NCBI GenBank assembly: GCA_023227985.1
Contig: JALOCB010000004.1
Span: 7,442-71,441, forward strand
Direction of reading: 5' to 3'
Length of the DNA stretch: 64,000 nucleotides
DNA from: Candidatus Omnitrophota bacterium
GTDB lineage: Bacteria; Omnitrophota; Gorgyraeia; Gygaellales; Profunditerraquicolaceae
Shown here: in pieces, positions 429-36,096 of the stretch
How the letters are laid out: each line of letters begins with the position of its first letter
How positions within the stretch are numbered: position 1 is the stretch's first letter
Translations under genes and position numbers: made by a program
The notes under the pieces: model-generated
What the model saw: only the letters and a program-made list of their open reading frames with translations
Told to the model about the DNA's origin: nothing
Databases searched by the model: none

Positions 429-890
429 TTACGCGGCCGGGCCGGCCAGCCTCTGCCTGACCAGTTCGCTGACCAGTTTACCGTCAGCGCTACCCGCGAT
501 CCTGGCAAGGACTTCTTTCATCACCCTGCCCATATCCTTTATCCCTGACGCCCCTAAAGACGCCGCTGTTTCCTCGACGATCTTCTTTACCGCCTCAGCG
601 GAAAGCTCCTCAGGCAAATAGGCCTTTAATATATCCAGTTCTTTTTTTTCTTTCTCCGCCAGTTCGGGGCGGCCTCCGGAGGTAAATTGTTCAATGGAAT
701 CCTGGTGCTGTTTGATCATTTTTTTCACCACTGCCAGCGATTCCGCATCCTCCAGCTTGTCCTTCTTCTTTTCCAGCGCCGCATAGCTTATCTGGGCGCG
801 CAGAAAACTCAAGGTTGAAACAGCCAAAGCATTCTTGTTCTTCAACGCATTCTTATAATCGATCATTAACTTTTCTTCAAGCATAGTCAT
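429..890 (-). CDS. GatB/YqeY domain-containing protein
   Basis: The stretch MTMLEEKLMIDYKNALKNKN...VKKIVEETAASLGASGIKDMGRVMKEVLARIAG is typical of the YqeY family, which is about 150 aa long. The track ORF is extended to 971 through the adjacent hairpin-repeat array; that extension is probably non-coding, and the true start is the internal Met at about 890. Confidence 0.7.
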   Translation of the reverse strand: MTMLEEKLMIDYKNALKNKNALAVSTLSFLRAQISYAALEKKKDKLEDAESLAVVKKMIKQHQDSIEQFTSGGRPELAEKEKKELDILKAYLPEELSAEAVKKIVEETAASLGASGIKDMGRVMKEVLARIAGSADGKLVSELVRQRLAGPAA

Positions 891-906
891 CTCCTTGAGC
901 ACGGGC

Positions 907-1180
907 TCAACACCGACTTTTCCGATAAAGTCGGGTGTAAAATACCTCGTACTTAACACCAACCTTTCCAATCAGGTTGGGTGTAAATACCTTTGACTCA
1001 ACACCGACTTTTCCGATAAAGTCGGGTGTAAAATACCTCGTACTTAACACCAACCTTTTCAATCAGGCTGGGTGTAAAATACCTTTGACTTAACACCAAC
1101 CTTTTCCCGCAAAGGCGGGATACTGGCGTAACCATTTACGCCAGGTGCCAATTAGGCCGGGTGTATATTAGAATAACACC
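907..1180. repeat. tandem array of five palindromic hairpin units (ACACC-stem-loop-stem-GGGTGT), REP/BIME-like
   Basis: Units of about 45 bp alternate between two types: A (caacaccgacttttccgataaagtcgggtgtaaaatacctcgtactt, occurring twice) and B (aacaccaacctttccaatcaggttgggtgtaaatacctttgact, occurring twice), followed by one longer degenerate unit. Each unit is an inverted repeat. On the minus (sense) strand the loop reads AUCGGAAA. The array lies between the YqeY-like gene and the sugar kinase gene. Confidence 0.8.
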
Positions 1181-12815: not shown

Positions 12816-15800
12816 CTACGCTTGGGCTTCTTTTTGCTTCTGCTTCTCTTCGAGTATCTTCGCGGCTACCTCAGCAGGGACTTGCGCGTATTTATCGAAT
12901 TCCATGGAGGCATTGGCCCTGCCGCTGGAAAGCGAACGGAACCCGGTGGCATAACCGAACATCTCGGAAAGCGGGGCTTCCGCGTCAACGACCTTCTGAT
13001 TGCCTTTCATCTCCATCCCCAGCACCTTTCCTCTGCGGGAACAGATATAGCTGATCACGCCGTTGACGTATTCCTCAGGGGTAGTGACCTCCAAAGACAT
13101 TGACGGTTCAAGCAGCACAGGGCTGGCTTTCATGAACACCTTCTTAAAACAAGCTATTGCCGCCAGTTTAAAAGCCAGTTCCGAGGAATCCACGTCGTGG
13201 AACGAACCATCCAGGAGGTTGATCTTTATATCCACAACAGGATACCCCGCGTAAACACCGTTTTTCATCGCCTCAACAACGCCCTTTTCTATTGCAGGGA
13301 AGAACGAGCGGGGAATAGCCCCGCCTTTTATGCTGTTGATGAATTCAAACCCTTTGCCCGGCTCATTGGGGGATATCTCAAAAACCACATGGCCGTATTG
13401 GCCGCGCCCGCCGGATTGCTTTATATGCTTATACTCATCCTTAGCGATGGCCTGGATAGTTTCGCGGTAAGCCACCTTGGGTTTTCCTACTACCGCGTCC
13501 ACTCCAAACTCGTTCTTCAGCCGGTCAACGATGATCTCCAGGTGCAATTCGCCCATACCGGTAAGCACTGTCTCTTGGGTCTCCTGATCGGATTGCACGA
13601 TAAATGTCGGGTCTTCTTCAGTAAGCTTGGCCAGACCTTTACCAAGCTTATCCTGGTCAGCCCTGCTTTTCGGCACGATACTTAAAGAAACCACAGGCAC
13701 CGGGAACTGGATCGTCTCTAACAAAACCGGGCTGTCCATATCGCTGAGCGTATCCCCGGTCACGGTATTTCCCAGGCCGATCACCGCCACGATATCTCCG
13801 GCAAAGGCATGCTCTTTTGGTTCGCGCTGATTCGCGTGCATCTGCAGGATGCGGCCGATCCTTTCTCTTTTGTTCTTGGTCACATTCAAGACATAAGTGC
13901 TGTTGTCCAACCTTCCCGAATAAACCCGCACATAAACCAGTTTACCCATATGCGGGTCGGTCTGGACCTTGAAAGCCAGACCGCAAAAAGGCTCATTGCT
14001 GTCAGGTTTACGCTCTATCGAGTTTTCCGTATTATCAGGGCTGGTCGCCTTGACCGCAGGGACATCCAGCGGAGACGGCAGGAACATATTTACCGCATCC
14101 AGAAGCTTTTGCACTCCCTTATTCTTAAAAGACGCCCCGCAAAGCACCGGAACAAGTTTATTCGCCACAGTCCCCTTACGGATAACTCTTACCAGTTCTT
14201 CTGTAGTCACGGAATCCGGCGATTCCAGGTACTTTTTCATCAACTCATCGTCGAAAGCCACTGCCCTCTCCAGCAGGATATGCCGGTATTTAGCGGCGCT
14301 TTCCTTATATCCCTCGGGGATATCTTCGATCTTATATTCCTTGCCCATTGTTTCATCGTCGTAAATATAGGACTTCATTTCGATCAAGTCGATCACCCCG
14401 CGGAATTTATCCTCGGCGCCCAAAGGTATCTCCAAGGCTGCCGCGTTAGCTCCCAATATTTTTTCGATCCCGGTCAATACAGCGAAAAAATCCGCTCCGG
14501 TGCGGTCCATCTTATTCACAAAGGCGATCTTGGCTACATTGTATTTATTCGACTGTCTCCAGACTGTTTCCGACTGCGGCTCAACCCCGCCTACAGCGCA
14601 AAAAAGCGCAACCGCGCCGTCAAGCACGCGCAAACTGCGCTCCACCTCAACAGTAAAATCCACATGGCCCGGTGTATCAATGATATTGATCCGACAGTCT
14701 TTCCAGAAACAGGTAGTGGCTGCCGAAGTAATGGTGATCCCTCTTTCCTGCTCCTGCTTCATCCAGTCCATCTGGGCCTTGCCGTCATGAACCTCGCCGA
14801 TCTTATATGATTTCCCGGTGTAATACAGTATACGCTCTGTGGTGGTGGTTTTCCCGGCGTCGATATGCGCCATAATCCCGATATTCCTTACTTTCTGCAG
14901 TTCTATTTCCGGGGCAATGAATACTTTAGGCTTTGCTTCTACGGCCTCGGCGGGCGCTTCTTCCAAAACAGGCTCGGCCGCAGGGTCCGGGATATCCGGC
15001 GCGGCTTCCGGAACAGATTCCGGAATAACAGGAATCTCTCCTGCCGGTTGAACTAACGGCTTCTCATCTTCTGCGGGAGCGATTGGTTGAGGTTCAGGCA
15101 CAGATTCCGCAAGGACTTGGGGGATCTCCGTCCTTACTTCTTCAACTTTAACCGGGGACGGAACGGACTGGCGCTGGACCTGGGCGTATAAATCCTTGAT
15201 CATCGCTTCTTTTCTTTCCAGCGCCTTGTCTTTTTCCCCTAATTCCTCTTCCAACTTGCTGTATTCTTCATTAAGACTGTTAAAATCTTTCTTGGAGATC
15301 CATTCGCTTTCCTCCAGGTCTTTCCTCATCTTCCGCACGGTACGAGAAAGCTCCTTGGCTTCATCGGCCTTAGCCTCCAGGTCTTTCAACAGACGGGCTA
15401 TCTGATGGCGCATCTTCTCCATCTCTTCGGCCTTGGCCTTGTTCTCATCTTCAAGCTTGCTGTACCTCTCAGCGGCTGCCCGCAAATCCCGGTTCAGATC
15501 CACGTTCTTGGAATATTCCAACACCAGTTCTTTTTCTTTCTGAAAAAGCACGTCCTTGTTCTCTATCGCCTCTCTTTTTATTTTATTGGCATCCTCTTCA
15601 TTGCGATCAAACCATTCTTTGCGCTTGAGCAGCTCTTCCTTAAACCCTGCCTCGGATTTCCTGGCGGCATCCAGGTTTTTCTGCAACTCAACGCGATCGG
15701 CATTTATTTTTTCCAATTCAGCGCTAAGACCGGCAGCCTGTTCCTGCAGTTTGGTTATCCGCGGATCCTGAACCGGGGCCTTTTTCTTGTTTTTATCATC

Positions 15801-15881
15801 AGCTGCCGGGATAGTCATAAAATACCATCCCAGGCCGATAACTATAAAAAGAGCCAATATCCCGATCAACATGTAAGTCAT
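12816..15881 (-). CDS. elongation factor G fused to an N-terminal transmembrane helix, coiled-coil and Pro/Glu-rich linker
   Basis: The 1021-aa ORF is continuous. Residues about 4-24 are hydrophobic ([17 protein letters not shown]). Residues about 40-235 are K/E-rich and heptad-like, consistent with a coiled coil. Residues about 236-320 are P/E/A-rich. Residues about 325-1021 are a full EF-G: G1 [10 protein letters not shown]3 DTPGH and G4 NKMD, with domains II-V through to ...[17 protein letters not shown]. No in-frame stop codon and no ATG/GTG/TTG start with a ribosome-binding site is found at the junction. Confidence 0.8.
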
Positions 15882-19970: not shown

Positions 19971-20366
19971 TTATTTCACTTCCAGCCGTTGCGAATTCTG
20001 CCAAAGGCCGTGGATGTTGCAATACGAAGAAACCAGGATCGTTCCCGGTTTATCGCTTAAAAAACTAAAGGCGAATTCCGGCCGGGAATAAACAGTGGAG
20101 GCATTCGGCCCCTGGGCGGATTCACCATGGCTGCAGGCCTCGAACCTGGCTATCTGGACCGGGAACTTTTCCCCGTCCGCGAGAAAATACGCCTCGATCC
20201 AGCGGATATGATGCTCTGTGGTGTTAGGATGCGGGATCTCTTTGCCTACGCTGAGTTTTACCTGCACTGCTTCGCCTTTTTTAGCTTCTGTCGCAGCCTC
20301 AATGACCGGGACGTGCTTTTCTTTCTTCCAATCCGCGTTCTGGAATAAATCCTTTAATTCAGCCAT
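19971..20366 (-). CDS. superoxide reductase (desulfoferrodoxin/neelaredoxin class)
   Basis: Contains KHVPVIE...HPNTTEHHIRWIE...C(N)xH, the SOR iron-site motifs. The true start is the ATG 5 nt after the AGGTGG Shine-Dalgarno sequence. The track ORF begins at a GTG inside the upstream palindromic repeat. Confidence 0.8.
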   Translation of the reverse strand: MAELKDLFQNADWKKEKHVPVIEAATEAKKGEAVQVKLSVGKEIPHPNTTEHHIRWIEAYFLADGEKFPVQIARFEACSHGESAQGPNASTVYSRPEFAFSFLSDKPGTILVSSYCNIHGLWQNSQRLEVK

Positions 20367-20376
20367 TTTCCACCTC

Positions 20377-20518
20377 TTGTGTAGAGACACAATACCAGCG
20401 CAATTCCGATTAGCGCTGGGTACAAATTACTATCTCAACACCCGCGCAATTCCGAATAGCGCGGGGTGTCAATTATTACCCCAACACCAACGCTATACCA
20501 ATTAGCGCCGGGTGCTAA
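20377..20518. repeat. 16-bp palindrome TTGTGTCTCTACACAA (sense strand) plus three ACACC...GGGTGT hairpin units, located in the 5' leader of the SOR gene
   Basis: The plus strand reads cttgtgtagagacacaa, followed by ccagcgcaattccgattagcgctgg, acacccgcgcaattccgaatagcgcggggtgt and caacaccaacgctataccaattagcgccgggtg. It belongs to the same family as the arrays at 907..1180 and 35041..35178. Confidence 0.8.
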
Positions 20519-20677
20519 TTACACCTTCTCGAACATATCCTTGCCCACTCCACATTCCGGACATACCCAGGTATCCGGAATATTCTCAAAAGCGGTACCA
20601 GGCTTGATCCCCGCCGCGGGATCGCCAACCGCCGGATCATAAATATAACCGCAGACAGTGCAGCGATATTTTGCCAT
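20519..20677 (-). CDS. rubredoxin (52 aa), missed by the ORF track
   Basis: Reverse-strand translation gives [52 protein letters not shown], with two CxxC pairs and the rubredoxin fingerprint. A GGAGG ribosome-binding site lies 7 nt upstream. The track's 68-aa ORF 20515..20721 is in a different frame. Coordinates are accurate to about 2 nt. Confidence 0.85.
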
Positions 20678-20686
20678 AGCCCCTCC

Positions 20687-21871
20687 TTAGATTTTCCCGG
20701 CGAATGATCTGCCGAATTCATAGCACGCGTTCAATTCATCAGTGTCCGGGACGAATTTAGCCGAAATAGAAGGCACTGCCAGCTCTATCCCTGAAAGCTT
20801 CACCACGTCTTCTATCTCTTTAACCGCGCCGCCTGCCCAGCCGAAAGACCCGAATACGCCGGCGATCCTGTTCTTGGCTTTAAAACCTTTGACCAGTTCC
20901 AGAAAACCGGAGATCTGCGGGAGCATATCATTGTCGTGCGTGGATGAGCCGAAAAGAAAACCCCGGGCATCGAGCATTTCAGTGATCACCTCGGTCCGGT
21001 CAGCCTGGTTTATATCAAAAAGCTGCACTTCCATCCCGGAATCGATCAACCCCCTGGATATGGCTTTGGCCATTTTCCCGGTCGATCCCCACATGGTTTC
21101 ATAGACTATCACTGTTTTGGCCGATGGCTTCTGGCCGGCCCAACCAAGGTAAGCTTTGATTATCTGAGCGGGATCGCTGCGCCAGATAAGCCCATGGCTG
21201 GGGGCGATCATTTTTATCGGAATGTTCATCTTCTGCACTTCTTCGATCTTGCGCAAAACCAATCCGCTTAAAGGCCAGAGGATATTGGCGTAATATTTCC
21301 TGGCTTCCTCCATTAAAACAGATTGATCCACCTGGTCGTTAAACCTGGCGGAAGTGGCGTAATGCTGGCCAAAGGCGTCGTTGGGCATAAGCATCTCGTC
21401 TTCCGGGATATAAGTGAACATGCTGTCCGGCCAATGCAGCATTGGAGCTTCCAGGAAAACAAGCCTGCGGCTGCCTAATTTTATCCCGTCGCCGCTTTTA
21501 ACCGCCTGAAAATCCCAGTCAGCGTAATAATGCTTATACAGGCCTTCTTTGCATTTCTGCGTTCCCAGCACTTTGGCCCCGGGGCATAATTTCATCAACT
21601 CCGGCATTGCCCCGGAATGATCGGTTTCCACATGATTGGCTATAACATAATCTATCTTTGCCGGATCGATCACTTCTTTGATCCTGGCGATGAATTCCGG
21701 AGCGAAAGCGGGCAGGACAGTGTCGATCAGCGCGATTTTGTCATCAACAATAAGATAAGAATTATAGGTTGTCCCTCTTTTAGTGGTGTAGGTATGGCCG
21801 TGGAAATTGCGCACGTTCCAATCCACCACGCCGACCCAATAGATCCCTTTCTTTATCTCCTGCGGTTTCAT
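20687..21871 (-). CDS. flavodiiron protein (rubredoxin:O2/NO oxidoreductase, FprA/ROO type)
   Basis: The 394-aa protein has a metallo-beta-lactamase-like diiron domain (HVETDHSGA...) and a C-terminal flavodoxin domain (TVIVYETMWGSTGKMA). Confidence 0.88.
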   Translation of the reverse strand: MKPQEIKKGIYWVGVVDWNVRNFHGHTYTTKRGTTYNSYLIVDDKIALIDTVLPAFAPEFIARIKEVIDPAKIDYVIANHVETDHSGAMPELMKLCPGAKVLGTQKCKEGLYKHYYADWDFQAVKSGDGIKLGSRRLVFLEAPMLHWPDSMFTYIPEDEMLMPNDAFGQHYATSARFNDQVDQSVLMEEARKYYANILWPLSGLVLRKIEEVQKMNIPIKMIAPSHGLIWRSDPAQIIKAYLGWAGQKPSAKTVIVYETMWGSTGKMAKAISRGLIDSGMEVQLFDINQADRTEVITEMLDARGFLFGSSTHDNDMLPQISGFLELVKGFKAKNRIAGVFGSFGWAGGAVKEIEDVVKLSGIELAVPSISAKFVPDTDELNACYEFGRSFAGKI

Positions 21872-21872
21872 A

Positions 21873-22565
21873 TCAGGGCTCCTTTACAAATTGGCTCTTA
21901 TCCGCCCCGCACACCGGACAACGCCAGCTATCAGGAATATCCTCAAACAGCGTGCCTGGAACTATCCCGGAATCCGGGTCACCCAGCGCGGGATCATATA
22001 TATAATTACATACTTCGCAGCGGTATTTCTGCCCGGCCCCGGGGATCTCCTGCTTATCCTCGCCCTTAATAAAAGTCGGGGCTGACTGCGGGGTTGTCCC
22101 GCGCTTGACCTTATGGTAATAATCATAGGTCATGGGCACGGCTTCCTTCAACAATTTCGATGCGGTTATCTCCCCCAGAAAAAGGGTATGCGTGCCGCAA
22201 TCCAATTCCTTGACCACCTTTGCTTCAAGATATGCCAGGGTATGCTCTAAAACAACCGGGCATCCGGAATCCAGCGCGGAGAACTGCACATTCTCAAATT
22301 TATTTATTTCGCGCCCGCTCTTAAAGCCGAACTTGCCGATAAGGTCCAAAGGGCAGTTTTGGGTAAGCACTGATACCGTGAACCTGCGGCTTTCCCGGAT
22401 GAACTCGTGGGTAAGATTATTCTTATTGATGCTTACCGCTATAGTCGCGGGCTCGCTGGTGATCTGAAATACGGTATTGGCGACCTGGCCATTAGTCCGG
22501 CCATTTTTATAAGAACAGACTATATACATCCCGTAACTAATATTATGCAGGACGCTAAGATCCAT
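21873..22565 (-). CDS. high-molecular-weight rubredoxin (flavin reductase-like domain fused to a C-terminal rubredoxin domain)
   Basis: The N-terminal region of about 170 aa is a flavin-reductase-like FMN-binding domain. The C-terminal sequence is [47 protein letters not shown], which is a rubredoxin domain. Confidence 0.8.
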
Positions 22566-34818: not shown

Positions 34819-35031
34819 TTATTCCTTGGCTATAGCCAGGGTGATCACGCCAACCAGAATAAAGAACAACCCGACGCAACCCTTGATCAAAGCCAATAGA
34901 TAAAAGCGGCCTTTTAAAGTAAGGTACGCGCCGAGGGCTAAGAACGCAAGGCCTAAAATCACCTTGAATGCCATAGCCGCCGCCTTCTTGCACCCGCATT
35001 CCTTTTTCCCCTGTTTTGCCTCGTCAGCCAT
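34819..35031 (-). CDS. small membrane protein (about 70 aa, two transmembrane helices)
   Basis: The sequence begins MADEAKQGKKECGCKKAAAMAFKVILGLAFLALGAYL... The start is the ATG after the AGGAGG Shine-Dalgarno sequence. The track ORF begins at a GTG inside the upstream palindromic repeat. Confidence 0.4.
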   Translation of the reverse strand: MADEAKQGKKECGCKKAAAMAFKVILGLAFLALGAYLTLKGRFYLLALIKGCVGLFFILVGVITLAIAKE

Positions 35032-35040
35032 CCCACCCTC

Positions 35041-35178
35041 CTTGTGTAGAGACACAACACCGACGCATATTCCGATTGCGTCGGGTGTCAGTTCTCATTA
35101 CAACACCGACGCATATTCTCCGCCACGGGGCGGATACCGGCTTATTCCTATAAAGCCGGGTGCCGATTGCGCCGGGTG
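35041..35178. repeat. palindrome TTGTGTCTCTACACAA plus ACACC...GGGTGT hairpin units, located in the 5' leader of the small membrane-protein gene
   Basis: The plus strand reads cttgtgtagagacacaa, followed by caccgacgcatattccgattgcgtcgggtgt, a longer composite hairpin (caacaccgacgcatattctccgccacggggcgg...gccgggtgccgattgcgccgggtgt). Confidence 0.8.
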
Positions 35179-36096
35179 TCAATTCTCTTTCGGTCTGCTT
35201 TTCCATCTCCGGTGTATCCAGCTCCATTCCTGAGGATACCTGCGGATATAGGACTCGATTATTTTCGTTATCCTTTGAATATTGTTCACTATCGTCTCCG
35301 CCTCATCTTTGCCCTTGAGCAGATCTAAAGCCGGCTCGAACACTATCCGGTGCGTATCATCTTTCTGCCTGATAATAAAACACGGCAGGATCGCCGCGCC
35401 TGTTCTCTGGGCAAGGACCACCGGGCCGGTGGCAGTAGCCGCTTTTCTGCCGAAGAAATCCACGTATACGCCCGATGTCCCGAAATTCTGGTCAAGGGGG
35501 ATCAACAAAAGCCTGTTCTCCCGCAAAGCCTTTATGGTATTCGCGACGCAGGCTGTACGGGGAATACTGCTTATGGTATTTATATCCAATTTCGCCCGGT
35601 CAGTTTCAAAAAGTCCCTCTATTTGACGGTTCTTCAGCGGACGCATGATCACGCTGGTCTTATATCCATCAATACTGAGTTTTGCCAGCATTAACACAAA
35701 ATTACCGAAATGGCCGCTGACCAATATCACCCCTTTACCCTTTGCCAGCGCCTGATCAAGATGCTCTTGGCCTTCAATAGTGGAACTTGACCTTATAAAC
35801 CCCGGCCTGCCTATGACAAAAGCCAGCTCTGAGGAGGACTTGGCCATATAAATAAAACAATCCCTGGCAATCTTTTTGATCTCTGCCGGGCTTTTAGTCT
35901 TTCCAAAAGCATGGCTAAGCCCCTCAAAAGCCACCCGTCTATGCCTGGCCAAGAGCCAATATCCAACAGTCCCAAGTTTCTCAGCGAACAAATACAGGTT
36001 TTTCCGGGATATATGCCGTATTATCAATGAGCAGGCGATTAACGCAATACTGCTGAGTATATTAGCGAAAACTCTTTTTATTTTCTTAAGGATCAT
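35179..36096 (-). CDS. lysophospholipid/lipid A acyltransferase (LpxL/HtrB family)
   Basis: The 305-aa protein has an N-terminal transmembrane anchor and HFGNF within ...VSGHFGNFVLM, the acyltransferase HX4D-like region of the LpxL family. Confidence 0.7.
   Translation of the reverse strand: MILKKIKRVFANILSSIALIACSLIIRHISRKNLYLFAEKLGTVGYWLLARHRRVAFEGLSHAFGKTKSPAEIKKIARDCFIYMAKSSSELAFVIGRPGFIRSSSTIEGQEHLDQALAKGKGVILVSGHFGNFVLMLAKLSIDGYKTSVIMRPLKNRQIEGLFETDRAKLDINTISSIPRTACVANTIKALRENRLLLIPLDQNFGTSGVYVDFFGRKAATATGPVVLAQRTGAAILPCFIIRQKDDTHRIVFEPALDLLKGKDEAETIVNNIQRITKIIESYIRRYPQEWSWIHRRWKSRPKEN

Follow-up and report, generated by a model that had tools for sequence, protein, structure and literature searches.

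Hairpins in a rubredoxin-superoxide reductase spacer of Omnitrophota belong to an uncatalogued family of structured, putative mRNA leader elements

Small repeats and structured leaders of known operons

REP/BIME elements occur in Enterobacteria and Pseudomonas, where they are mobilised by RAYT Y1 transposases. REPs are co-transcribed, and in operons like malE-malF their hairpins lend stability to the mRNA segments upstream of them. ERIC/IRU and the Neisseria Correia elements (CREE) are MITE-like, non-autonomous insertions in intercistronic or 5' regions that alter the expression of neighbouring genes; when co-transcribed, they fold as RNA hairpins with an orientation-dependent effect on mRNA stability or processing. 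CsrA recognises RNA with the SELEX consensus RUACARGGAUGU. The E. coli ompA leader and the B. subtilis aprE and SP82 stabilisers carry a stable hairpin upstream of a strong Shine-Dalgarno (SD) sequence and go together with high expression. At PPR10-type sites in 5' UTRs, the bound factor stops exonucleases and keeps the ribosome-binding site (RBS) open. The plastid intercistronic expression element (IEE) is a short RNA element giving stable, translatable downstream cistrons from operon transcripts (PMC2230500); PPR10-type sites are the subject of related work (bioRxiv 10.1101/2024.01.03.574089).

The Omnitrophota module analysed here resembles REP/BIME elements in being a short (~30-35 nt) imperfect palindrome that is intergenic, multi-copy, clustered and variable in copy number between strains. 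However, REP/BIME copies alternate in inverted orientation whereas the Omnitrophota arrays consist of direct repeats with a strong sense bias toward the downstream gene, and the module, unlike REP/BIME, keeps a fixed register to the SD and start codon and possesses a second hairpin that also covaries. A given REP is confined to one genus, while the same Omnitrophota sequence is encountered in many Omnitrophota genomes; the GTAG-type 5' tetranucleotide of REPs was not seen in the module. ERIC/IRU and CREE share with it a location in intercistronic or 5' regions, but they measure 100-150 bp, end in inverted repeats, produce target-site duplications and can be inserted either way round, whereas the module spans ~45-55 nt and shows no sign of a target duplication, and the RBS lies within it or next to it. 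The 5' stabilisers are comparable in the roles proposed below, mRNA protection and RBS presentation; on the other hand, they are single-gene devices without conserved loop sequence or repeat family, and they are 5'-terminal, whereas at least one Omnitrophota module lies ~30-40 nt past a promoter-like site and not at the very 5' end. The plastid IEE and PPR10 sites are single-stranded protein footprints rather than hairpins and bear no sequence relationship to the module.

Rfam 15 at gathering score gave no match in the window (the whole 64-kb stretch of DNA analysed) and tRNAs only at twelve element-carrying Omnitrophota loci; scans of the three window loci at E-values up to 10 returned miRNA, snoRNA and CRISPR-DR matches at noise level (8-16 bits). 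Full-text literature searches on Omnitrophota/Omnitrophica and Velamenicoccus brought up no account of the element.

Several other identities were tried and rejected. A CRISPR array does not agree with linkers of 13-16 nt that are themselves repeated, and the best CRISPR-DR match reaches 12.7 bits against a gathering score of 39. An intrinsic terminator was dismissed since positions 20391-20518 contain no terminator-like site, the units being followed by GUGU.., linkers or an SD. ToxI-like type III antitoxin repeats do not suit the downstream genes, which encode superoxide reductase (SOR), YqeY and a 70-aa membrane protein in the window and GroEL, DnaK and others elsewhere. In the case of integron attC sites, the sequence past GGUGUU (GTTGTGT, GTTGAGA) misfits GTTRRRY, and the neighbours are core housekeeping genes. 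The CIRCE/HrcA operator, TTAGCACTC-N9-GAGTGCTAA, came into question since the element precedes groEL and dnaK; its sequence is unrelated, and many non-chaperone genes carry the element as well. Comparison of the loop with the 16S rRNA 3' tail, using a generic 16S sequence and not that of Omnitrophota, revealed no convincing complementarity.

The rubredoxin-SOR spacer and its sister loci

Pfam identifies Rubredoxin upstream and Desulfoferrodox (SOR) downstream of the array, for which the minus strand is the mRNA sense, as it is the coding strand for all units of the 64-kb window. A preliminary description had placed three hairpin units between the rubredoxin stop codon and the SOR start codon, and the sequence matches this account: three 33-nt units lie within 20391-20515 and fill the distance from the rubredoxin stop codon to the SOR SD. 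With the stop codon UAA at 20519..20521, the array element occupies the entire spacer.

A gap of 3 nt (UUA, 20516-20518) separates this stop codon from the rubredoxin-proximal unit 1, GCACCCGGCGC-UAAUUGGUAUA-GCGUUGGUGUU (20483..20515), which scores 23.1 bits against the covariance model, contains two G-U pairs on the mRNA strand and has a 'GCACC / UGGUAU' flavour resembling the inner units of composite elements. Linker 1, GGGGUAAUAAUUG (20470..20482), is 13 nt long, AU-rich and devoid of clamp hairpin. It leads to unit 2, a perfect bulged hairpin of 47.4 bits, ACACCCCGCGC-UAUUCGGAAUU-GCGCGGGUGUU (20437..20469), followed by linker 2, GAGAUAGUAAUUU (20424..20436), also AU-rich and 13 nt long. 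The SOR-proximal unit 3, GUACCCAGCGC-UAAUCGGAAUU-GCGCUGGUAUU (20391..20423), has a compensatory change of its outer pair from C-G to U-A. Next come a 12-nt clamp hairpin, H2, GUGUCUCUACAC (GUGU-CUCU-ACAC, 20379..20390), the SD region AAGAGGUGG (20370..20378) and the AUG (20364-20366) of the SOR gene (19971..20366), which encodes a Desulfoferrodox protein of 131 aa. Together, unit 3, clamp and SD reach 61.9 bits (E=1.4e-12), a full canonical module, and the assignment to the 5' leader of SOR holds. Units 1 and 2, which are without clamp hairpin, may be functionally neutral passengers.

Tandem Repeats Finder delimits the array at 20390-20522 (period 46, 2.9 copies, 77% matches), and the window contains the pattern AACACC-N14-30-GGTGT six times, where shuffles predict 0.08 occurrences. 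The spacer is predicted to fold more stably than shuffled sequences (z = -3.4), and the SD at 20370-20378 is unpaired in the predicted minimum-free-energy fold.

This spacer had been introduced as the second locus of a repeat family. The family does recur at 888-1164; there is in addition a third locus in the window, at 35032-35179. An unfiltered covariance-model scan of the whole window recovered units at these three loci only, all on the minus strand. In total, the 64 kb hold ~13 units at three loci, with a fourth locus just outside, and all are intergenic. The first sister locus (888..1164, minus strand) lies between the stop codon of a pfkB-family kinase gene (1168-1170) and the start of yqeY (884); it comprises a composite, nested unit (1092-1164), four simple units (1046-1075, 1000-1029, 955-984 and 909-938) and the clamp GAGCCCGUGCUC (897-908), followed by the SD AAGGAG. 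The other (35032..35179, minus strand) extends from a lipid A acyltransferase stop codon (35179-35181), which overlaps the first base of the element, to an ORF for a 70-aa membrane protein (AUG 35029-35031). It contains a composite unit (35102-35179), a linker, a simple unit (35056-35088) and a clamp (35044-35055) followed by the SD AAGGAGG. This clamp is identical to the one at 20379-20390, and an exact 17-mer, TTGTGTCTCTACACAAG, is common to this element and the rubredoxin-SOR locus.

The loop core AUCGGAA, previously described as conserved between the first two arrays, is indeed present in both, but its exact form is limited to one of the three rubredoxin-SOR units and two of the four simple units at 909-1075; the remaining cores read UUCGGAA, AUUGGUA, AUUGGAA and AUUGAAA.

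Architecture and distribution of the module in Omnitrophota

A strand-neutral exact-pattern scan of 185,579 species genomes, in which the inner stem was left unconstrained, detected at least ~30 loci in Candidatus Omnitrophota MAGs, including Velamenicoccus archaeovorus, among the matches listed. Within these same listed matches, the inner stem is paired at 5/5 positions in 27 of 30 from Omnitrophota versus 5 of 91 from other phyla, and ~25-27 of the 30 strand-neutral Omnitrophota matches are in sense orientation to the downstream gene. Viral contigs provided five pattern matches, which look like chance because none of them forms the stem.

The canonical module consists of two hairpins. The first, H1, opens with ACAC, one bulged C, then C and 5 bp (a 6-bp variable stem); its loop of 8-11 nt, (U)NAUCGGAAUU, is centred on AUCGGAA(UU), and the return arm ends in GUGU-U. 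Immediately 3' of H1, H2 is a clamp hairpin of 3-4 bp with a 4-5-nt loop, which covaries as well. The module ends with a single A, a strong SD (AGGAGG) and 4-8 nt preceding the AUG. An AGGAG-type SD is located 12-15 nt past H1 in 30 modules, and the start codon follows 2-12 nt past the 54-nt modelled segment, which includes the SD. The second GGA of the module, that of the SD, is nearly trivial, as any SD would supply one.

Base pairing is maintained while the sequence changes. Helix 1 is paired at 99.1% and 98.3%, with both partners altered in 7/10 and 9/10 pairs; covariation scores 0.52, compared with 0.18 for shuffles and at most 0.14 when the partners are slid. Of 58 modules, 56 have the clamp hairpin, whose 5' arm takes 23 different sequences, and compensatory U-A to C-G changes in both H1 and H2 distinguish orthologous sites of V. 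archaeovorus and UBA6210. The proposal that these are not generic stem-loops is thus borne out by covarying stems in ~50 copies from ~30 Omnitrophota genomes. Covariance analysis also places the loop core near AUNGG(A/U), with GG present in 20 of the 22 loops that were not selected by pattern. As ACACCC, GGTGTT and WTCGGAA were the search-pattern bases, their conservation in the cross-species set is partly by construction. A strand test counting G-U against A-C favoured the mRNA strand (19 versus 5), but this biased test is discounted because the unit filter and the model permitted G-U on the mRNA strand only. We conclude that the three rubredoxin-SOR hairpins are genuine members of this structured, uncatalogued family of mRNA leader elements.

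In 23 of 35 cases, an upstream ORF on the same strand stops 0-30 nt before the array, so that the module makes up the entire intercistronic spacer. The downstream products, according to Pfam, include GroEL, Hsp70, L7/L12, L20, L25, GAPDH, KARI, ACP, MetK, BCCP, P-II and transaldolase. With groEL, dnaK, rplL, rplT and other ribosomal protein genes, the GAPDH gene, acpP, ilvC, metK and others preceded by the module, the earlier suggestion of a link to oxygen stress loses its ground: nothing special connects the element to that response. Retrieval by SOR protein homology, which used no DNA pattern, yielded a module before a ferritin-like gene. One module is part of a genuine 5' UTR, with a sigma-70-like promoter ~30-40 nt upstream of it. 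At one orthologous locus in three species, the array is antisense to both flanking genes and no SD follows it; a flanking ORF runs on into antisense array sequence, which supplies its C-terminus. At another locus (L097), the units are followed by A-runs and not by an SD.

The array is not conserved at the rubredoxin-SOR junction. The closest SOR relative, with 78% identity and the same synteny, reads stop-TAA-T-ATG and carries no repeat, and a covariance-model scan of 80 metagenomic SOR loci found 79 of them without the module, the single match being unrelated and downstream of SOR. At the ilvN-ilvC junction of two species, by contrast, the 53-nt module differs at one position while the flanking coding and non-coding sequences diverge (the alignment mean of 88% includes the near-invariant module). 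Purifying selection need not be the cause of near identity among copies, which recent spread or gene conversion could also produce.

Mobility, expression and rival readings

In addition, the family spreads in the manner of a small mobile repeat. When assemblies with 99.9% identity are compared, the 888-1164 array shows apparent copy-number differences of 45 and 91 nt, to which collapse of short-read assemblies may contribute, and V. archaeovorus possesses one extra composite module relative to UBA6210. Tandem duplicates are 94-100% identical, near-identical composites are found at unlinked loci, and arrays are built of head-to-tail direct repeats, not inverted pairs. Nested copies always split the host loop at one place, AUCG | (G)AAUU.

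The reading that we favour, by a little over even chances, is that of an RNA module acting in cis, between cistrons or as a 5' leader, which would present the SD and buffer segments of the mRNA; a trans-acting factor would probably recognise it, and it would spread by duplication or insertion. The module would be transcribed within the flavodiiron-rubredoxin-SOR operon mRNA and fold on its own. The downstream SD would thereby be insulated from upstream sequence and kept single-stranded, allowing strong, context-independent initiation on the next cistron, and the stable hairpins could block exonucleases and deprive Rho of unstructured RNA, which would allow a segment-specific mRNA stability. 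The effect on mRNA stability or cistron decoupling suggested in the preliminary description is plausible. Recognition of the conserved loop and bulge by a candidate lineage-specific RNA-binding factor would be their simplest explanation. At the DNA level, tandem duplication and whole-module insertion, also into the loops of resident units, would account for propagation; the two extra H1 units and their AU-rich linkers would have been added in this manner upstream of the SOR-proximal module. Spreading by duplication and insertion would give the family REP/MITE-like dynamics while it serves as an expression element. A bolder version, which we put forward tentatively and regard as distinctly less probable, considers the module a novel kind of self-propagating 'plug-in' translation leader of ~50 nt, recognised by a factor dedicated to it in this lineage, placed before housekeeping genes for abundant proteins and spreading site-specifically. 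Site-specific spread would then also target the GGA-containing loop of resident copies, producing the recurrent three-way-junction composites, and a mobile RNA/DNA module would have been co-opted as the standard high-expression intercistronic element of the lineage.

The same dynamics could describe a selfish REP/MITE-like DNA repeat without any role in expression, spreading via single-stranded DNA or replication slippage. Its coupling to the SD and its orientation bias would reflect an insertion preference (GGA targets on one strand, highly transcribed DNA), and the hairpin would be kept because the mobilising enzyme requires it. Copy number that varies between near-identical assemblies and between species, the near identity of tandem duplicates and of composites at unlinked loci, the constant splitting point of nested copies, the empty orthologous junction of the closest SOR relative and the antisense array read into an ORF all suit such an element. 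We nevertheless hold it to be unlikely. Many Omnitrophota genomes share this sequence and architecture, and orthologous sites display compensatory changes; the SD and AUG stand in precise register with the module, which also contains a covarying clamp hairpin, and the sense bias and direct-copy arrays are unlike classical REP/BIME. A tblastn search of ~400 kb of sampled Omnitrophota DNA for Y1 (RAYT/IS200-type) transposases found nothing (best E=3.6), which weighs at most weakly against mobilisation of this kind, as the IS200 TnpA query was approximate and a single-copy gene could easily escape so small a sample. If a protein reads the loop, it could be a CsrA/RsmA-type global regulator or an analogous hairpin-loop binder whose dimer bridges the GGA of the H1 loop (AUCGGAA) and that of the SD, with arrays as high-avidity sites or built-in sponges. 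Like CsrA/RsmA hairpins and CsrB/RsmZ-type sponges, the module combines a loop GGA with an SD GGA, supplied by AAGGAGG at a fixed distance of ~31 nt downstream, and its hairpins form tandem arrays; GG(A) is moreover the most conserved loop feature, including in those 20 of 22 units. Yet CsrA targets display ANGGA flanked by AC..GU, whereas the Omnitrophota loop is AUCGGAAU, which does not fit the consensus (A/C)ANGGA(U/N)G, and (U)NAUCGGAAUU matches the extended consensus (RUACARGGAUGU / CANGGAYG) at GGA alone. The conserved bulged C is not a CsrA feature and is left unexplained together with the ACAC/GUGU base, and the genes concerned include constitutive housekeeping genes; with approximate CsrA and Hfq queries, tblastn on a small Omnitrophota sample found no match. 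We give this regulator platform little credence.

The intercistronic position beginning at a stop codon and the sequence-specific hairpin with its bulge and conserved loop would also suit a dedicated endoribonuclease site, comparable to the plastid IEE or to hairpin recognition of the Cas6/Csy4 type, where the polycistronic mRNA would be cut at the junction to leave hairpin-protected ends and cistrons of differing half-lives. The module is found at the groES-groEL and ilvN-ilvC junctions and upstream of rplL, where neighbouring cistrons would have unequal output. Stems of ~10 bp are, however, short for RNase III, and the module in a true 5' UTR has no upstream cistron to be separated, which makes such a site improbable in our view. 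By far the least credible reading is a DNA-level signal, either the operator of a dimeric transcription factor with ACACC/GGTGT half-sites or a repeat-borne promoter. The outer arms do form a conserved inverted repeat, and one sigma-70-like match, TTGGTA-18-AATAAT (20472-20501, minus strand), lies inside the array. Such matches occur at chance frequency (5 found versus 4.8 expected), on which account a promoter inside the rubredoxin-SOR array was rejected, and no -10-like hexamer is suitably placed in the canonical module. Inner stems and clamp covary instead of being conserved, whereas a protein-DNA site needs no covariation, and the asymmetric bulge and loop as well as the strict orientation to the SD argue for strand-specific reading as RNA.

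Omnitrophota are uncultured, mostly ultra-small bacteria with a reported unusually high activity per cell, and to our knowledge almost nothing is known about the control of their gene expression. The module, a structured leader that is lineage-specific and conserved in sequence, occupies precisely the interval from the upstream stop codon to the SD in front of genes for chaperones, ribosomal proteins and central metabolism. Recognising it aids the annotation of Omnitrophota MAGs, both in the choice of start codons and in accounting for structured spacers. With its self-nesting and copy-number changes, it lends itself to studying how a mobile repeat is domesticated into a regulatory element, and insulating hairpins joined to an SD constitute a compact, context-independent part of the sort that synthetic biologists make by hand. 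If functional, the module would be a candidate for inclusion in Rfam as a new family, would offer a route to its binding partner and would add to Omnitrophota a layer of expression control inside operons that has so far escaped notice.

The spacer between rubredoxin and superoxide reductase

Nearly all genes of the window are carried by the minus strand, which is therefore the mRNA sense of the array. The local order starts with a flavin-reductase-rubredoxin fusion (21873-22565, minus strand), followed on the same strand by a flavodiiron protein (20687-21871), rubredoxin (Rd; 20519-20677), a 152-nt spacer, superoxide reductase (SOR; 19971-20366, Pfam Desulfoferrodox) and a PNPOx-like protein. 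The preliminary description had placed three hairpins in the Rd-SOR spacer, and these correspond to 33-nt minus-strand units at 20483-20515 (Rd-proximal), 20437-20469 (middle) and 20391-20423 (SOR-proximal), repeated with a 46-nt period in 2.9 copies according to Tandem Repeats Finder. It had not remarked that the first unit lies 3 nt past the rubredoxin stop codon, nor that a 12-nt hairpin, GUGUCUCUACAC, abuts the 3' side of the SOR-proximal unit and is followed by the Shine-Dalgarno (SD) sequence AAGAGGUGG, AAA and the AUG of SOR. The array thus constitutes the whole intercistronic spacer. Its predicted fold surpasses those of shuffled sequences in stability (z = -3.4), and the SD remains unpaired in it. 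At 20370-20390 (minus strand), the 5' arm and loop of the short hairpin (GUCUCU) could alternatively pair with the SD (AGAGGU), so that a free and a sequestered SD would exclude each other, a possible switch; pyrimidine-rich loops (CUCU, UUUCU, CCUCU) occur at the same position in several other modules. A sigma-70-like match (TTGGTA-18 nt-AATAAT, 20472-20501, minus strand) is formed by the first unit's loop and the first linker, and the linkers GGGGUAAUAAUUG and GAGAUAGUAAUUU contain -10-like TAnnAT strings; such sigma-70-like matches are no more frequent in the region than in shuffles.

The window contains six matches to AACACC-N14-30-GGTGT, where 0.08 would be expected. An unfiltered covariance-model search of its full length recovered units, always on the minus strand, at 888-1164 (between pfkB and yqeY), 20370-20515 and 35035-35163 only. 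The third locus (35032-35179) has an exact 17-mer, TTGTGTCTCTACACAAG, in common with the Rd-SOR locus (0.01 expected). There, a composite unit, in which one unit is nested in the loop of another, a simple unit, a clamp hairpin and an SD fill the spacer (35029-35181, minus strand) between a lipid A acyltransferase gene upstream, whose stop codon shares the first base of the element, and an ORF for a 70-aa membrane protein downstream. The outer halves of this composite (35102-35179) are one base off the adjacent simple unit. A fourth locus, about 500 nt past the right end of the window (L214:8060-8280), combines a composite with a clamp (GCAUCCGUAUGC) and AAGG; about 50 nt upstream of it is a tRNA-like sequence (tRNA-Ala by eye), and a CTP_transf_like/APS-kinase gene follows. 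The two composites are about 93% identical and the loci are unlinked. Elsewhere, 12816-15881 (minus strand) encodes a 1021-aa protein with EF-Tu/EF-G-type GTPase domains and EFG_III/IV/C and RF3_C Pfam matches, which is unusually long for a translational GTPase (700-1021 aa as called in different assemblies).

A covarying module in register with the Shine-Dalgarno sequence

Comparison of the matches with their flanks, in the orientation of the downstream gene, revealed one common architecture. The bulged hairpin H1 opens with ACAC and a bulged C; in the 6-bp stem that follows, C-G (or U-A) forms the first pair and the other five are variable. The loop of 8 or 11 nt reads (U)NAUCGGAA(UU), and the return arm terminates in G-GUGU-U. 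The clamp H2, a hairpin of 3-4 bp with a 4-5-nt loop, comes next, then one A and AGGAGG, 12-15 nt past H1 (30 modules). The start codon lies 2-12 nt past the modelled 54-nt segment, which includes the SD, so that the structure is held in fixed register with SD and AUG.

In a MAFFT alignment of 47 distinct modules, for which the unit filter had demanded pairing of the five inner pairs, helix 1 is 99.1% paired and both sides have changed at 7 of 10 pairs. Helix 1 scores 0.52 for covariation; shuffles give 0.18 (none of 500 reaches 0.52) and slid partners at most 0.14. Model-based alignment of 53 hits gave 98.3% pairing and changes on both sides at 9 of 10 pairs. H2, length-variable and poorly alignable, was for this reason parsed directly and found in 56 of 58 modules, with 23 different 5'-arm sequences. 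Since ACACCC, GGTGTT and WTCGGAA constitute the search pattern itself and the filter imposed inner pairing, the independent evidence consists of the inner-stem pairing of the scan matches, H2, the SD register, gene orientation and taxonomy. Among 22 units outside the pattern selection, GG is present in 20 loops, with the consensus AUNGG(A/U). The covariance check proposed earlier, together with this consensus, therefore upholds the view of a sequence-specific, structure-constrained element.

The pattern ACACCC-N5-8-WTCGGAA-N5-8-GGTGTT was searched in one genome per species (185,579 species, 596 Gb) and matched at least 120 loci. Among the matches listed, about 30 come from MAGs of Candidatus Omnitrophota, two of them from the complete Velamenicoccus archaeovorus genome; the remainder are scattered over unrelated phyla, as expected when 19 bases are searched in that much sequence. 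As the stem is left unconstrained by the pattern, stem pairing provides an unbiased test: the inner five pairs are all formed in 27 of the 30 Omnitrophota matches listed (four of five in the other three) vs 5 of the 91 from other phyla, the rest of which show a chance-like mode of 1-2 pairs. Three of these five are TPA bins labelled 'Planctomycetales' and carry the full module architecture. No family matching the element was found in Rfam 15, and full-text literature searches returned no description of it.

Gene context, constraint and spread

The element is mostly intercistronic, as in 23 of 35 cases an ORF on the same strand terminates 0-30 nt before the array, and about 25-27 of the 30 strand-neutral Omnitrophota matches listed are in sense orientation, running into an SD. 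One orthologous pair of loci has a sigma-70-like promoter some 30-40 nt upstream, so the element may also occupy a true 5' UTR, away from the transcript 5' end. Between L086:4650-5060 (V. archaeovorus) and L088:5735-6145 (minus strand), the two species share some 110 nt of almost identical sequence 5' of the element, with a near-consensus TTGACA...TATAAT promoter in it. On the downstream side of the element, a tiny ORF is conserved over its first 17 or so codons only (M(R)xRPRYFLRAIAHCKEGC); it may encode a leader peptide or represent a non-coding RNA, and its region has no Rfam match.

Downstream genes encode, by Pfam, GroEL, Hsp70/DnaK, ribosomal proteins L7/L12, L20 (twice) and L25, GAPDH, ketol-acid reductoisomerase (twice), transaldolase, ACP, SAM synthetase, BCCP, P-II, PhoU, a PstS-like binding protein, ThiS, LemA, AMMECR1 and PTS-EIIA and, in the window, SOR, YqeY and the 70-aa membrane protein. 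Many of these are abundant proteins of bacterial cells, and an excess of the downstream cistron is generally required at the groES-groEL and ilvN-ilvC junctions and upstream of rplL. The role specific to oxygen stress suggested by the SOR operon finds no support, since modules also precede GroEL, DnaK, ribosomal-protein and GAPDH genes.

In two species, the modules at the ilvN-ilvC junction differ at one of 53 nt, in the loop, within an alignment of 88% mean identity (module included) whose flanking coding and adjacent non-coding bases diverge. An orthologous module of V. archaeovorus and UBA6210 shows compensatory U-A to C-G changes in both H1 and H2. By sequence comparison, these cases are evidence for constraint.

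The family also displays repeat-like dynamics. The 888-1164 array is exactly 45 and 91 nt shorter (one and two units) in two other assemblies (L212:10900-11139 and L213:10900-11093) that are otherwise 99.9-100% identical, which could reflect real copy-number polymorphism or, at least in part, short-read collapse of a tandem repeat. V. archaeovorus carries an extra composite module vs a single simple module in UBA6210. Composite units occur at nine or more loci. In each, the outer loop, always split between AUCG and (G)AAUU, takes up an entire inner module (GCACC-type hairpin with a loop of UAAAUGGUAUU or similar, GC-rich clamp and A), which would create a three-way junction. In V. archaeovorus and two relatives (L052:2081-2236, L042:761-897, L029:3636-3772), one orthologous array, a composite plus a simple unit, runs antisense to the genes on both sides and is not followed by an SD; an upstream membrane-protein ORF runs about 15 codons into the repeat, and the V. 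archaeovorus copy has an extra 20-nt hairpin (CCUGCCUGCCGGCAGGCAGG) within the outer 3' arm.

The SOR protein is also encoded in GCA_028711865.1 and several metagenomes, on contigs 99.9-100% identical to the window and hence from the same population. Its closest relative (L127:415-1014, 78% identity) keeps the fusion and PNPOx neighbours without the flavodiiron and rubredoxin genes or the repeat, SOR starting 1 nt past the upstream stop codon (TAA-T-ATG); the flavodiiron-Rd-array block was thus inserted in the window lineage or lost in the relative. Among 80 metagenomic SOR loci, a single one has a module nearby, downstream of SOR and before a ferritin-like gene. The array at 20391-20518 is thus a member of a widespread family that was acquired, or has expanded, in this particular lineage.

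Possible function and affinities

We consider it somewhat probable that the element acts as a cis-acting RNA. The module would insulate and present the SD and shield mRNA segments from exonucleases and Rho, and a putative factor would recognise it through the loop and bulge. Altered mRNA stability or decoupling of cistrons, as first proposed, would be plausible effects. It appears unlikely that the family is purely selfish, a REP/MITE-like repeat with an insertion preference behind its SD coupling. We find it still less likely that the module is a platform for a CsrA-like regulator: GGA occurs both in the loop and in the SD, yet the loop consensus does not fit that of CsrA. About as improbable is a dedicated RNase processing site; these last two readings are compatible with much of the cis-acting model and differ in the purpose of the conserved loop. 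A DNA operator or promoter is very improbable, given the covariation and the chance frequency of the sole promoter-like match. The remaining probability falls to explanations not considered here.

The closest known systems are REP, ERIC and Correia-type repeats, which modulate operon mRNA, and the plastid intercistronic expression element (PMC2230500) and PPR10 sites; more broadly, the Omnitrophota element resembles protective structures known to reshape operon stoichiometry (PMC5927463). Membership in REP/BIME was rejected because the Omnitrophota arrays differ in being direct repeats, strand-biased and SD-locked; no RAYT was seen in about 400 kb of sampled Omnitrophota DNA. A CRISPR array, a terminator, an attC site and a ToxI-like repeat were each rejected as their defining features are absent. 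REP-like yet outside these classes, it is best described as a repeat-derived cis-acting RNA hairpin element, unusual in its SD coupling, its self-nesting and a loop conserved across many Omnitrophota genomes. It represents a candidate new RNA family, with a function that we infer, present in many genomes from a phylum about which little is known.
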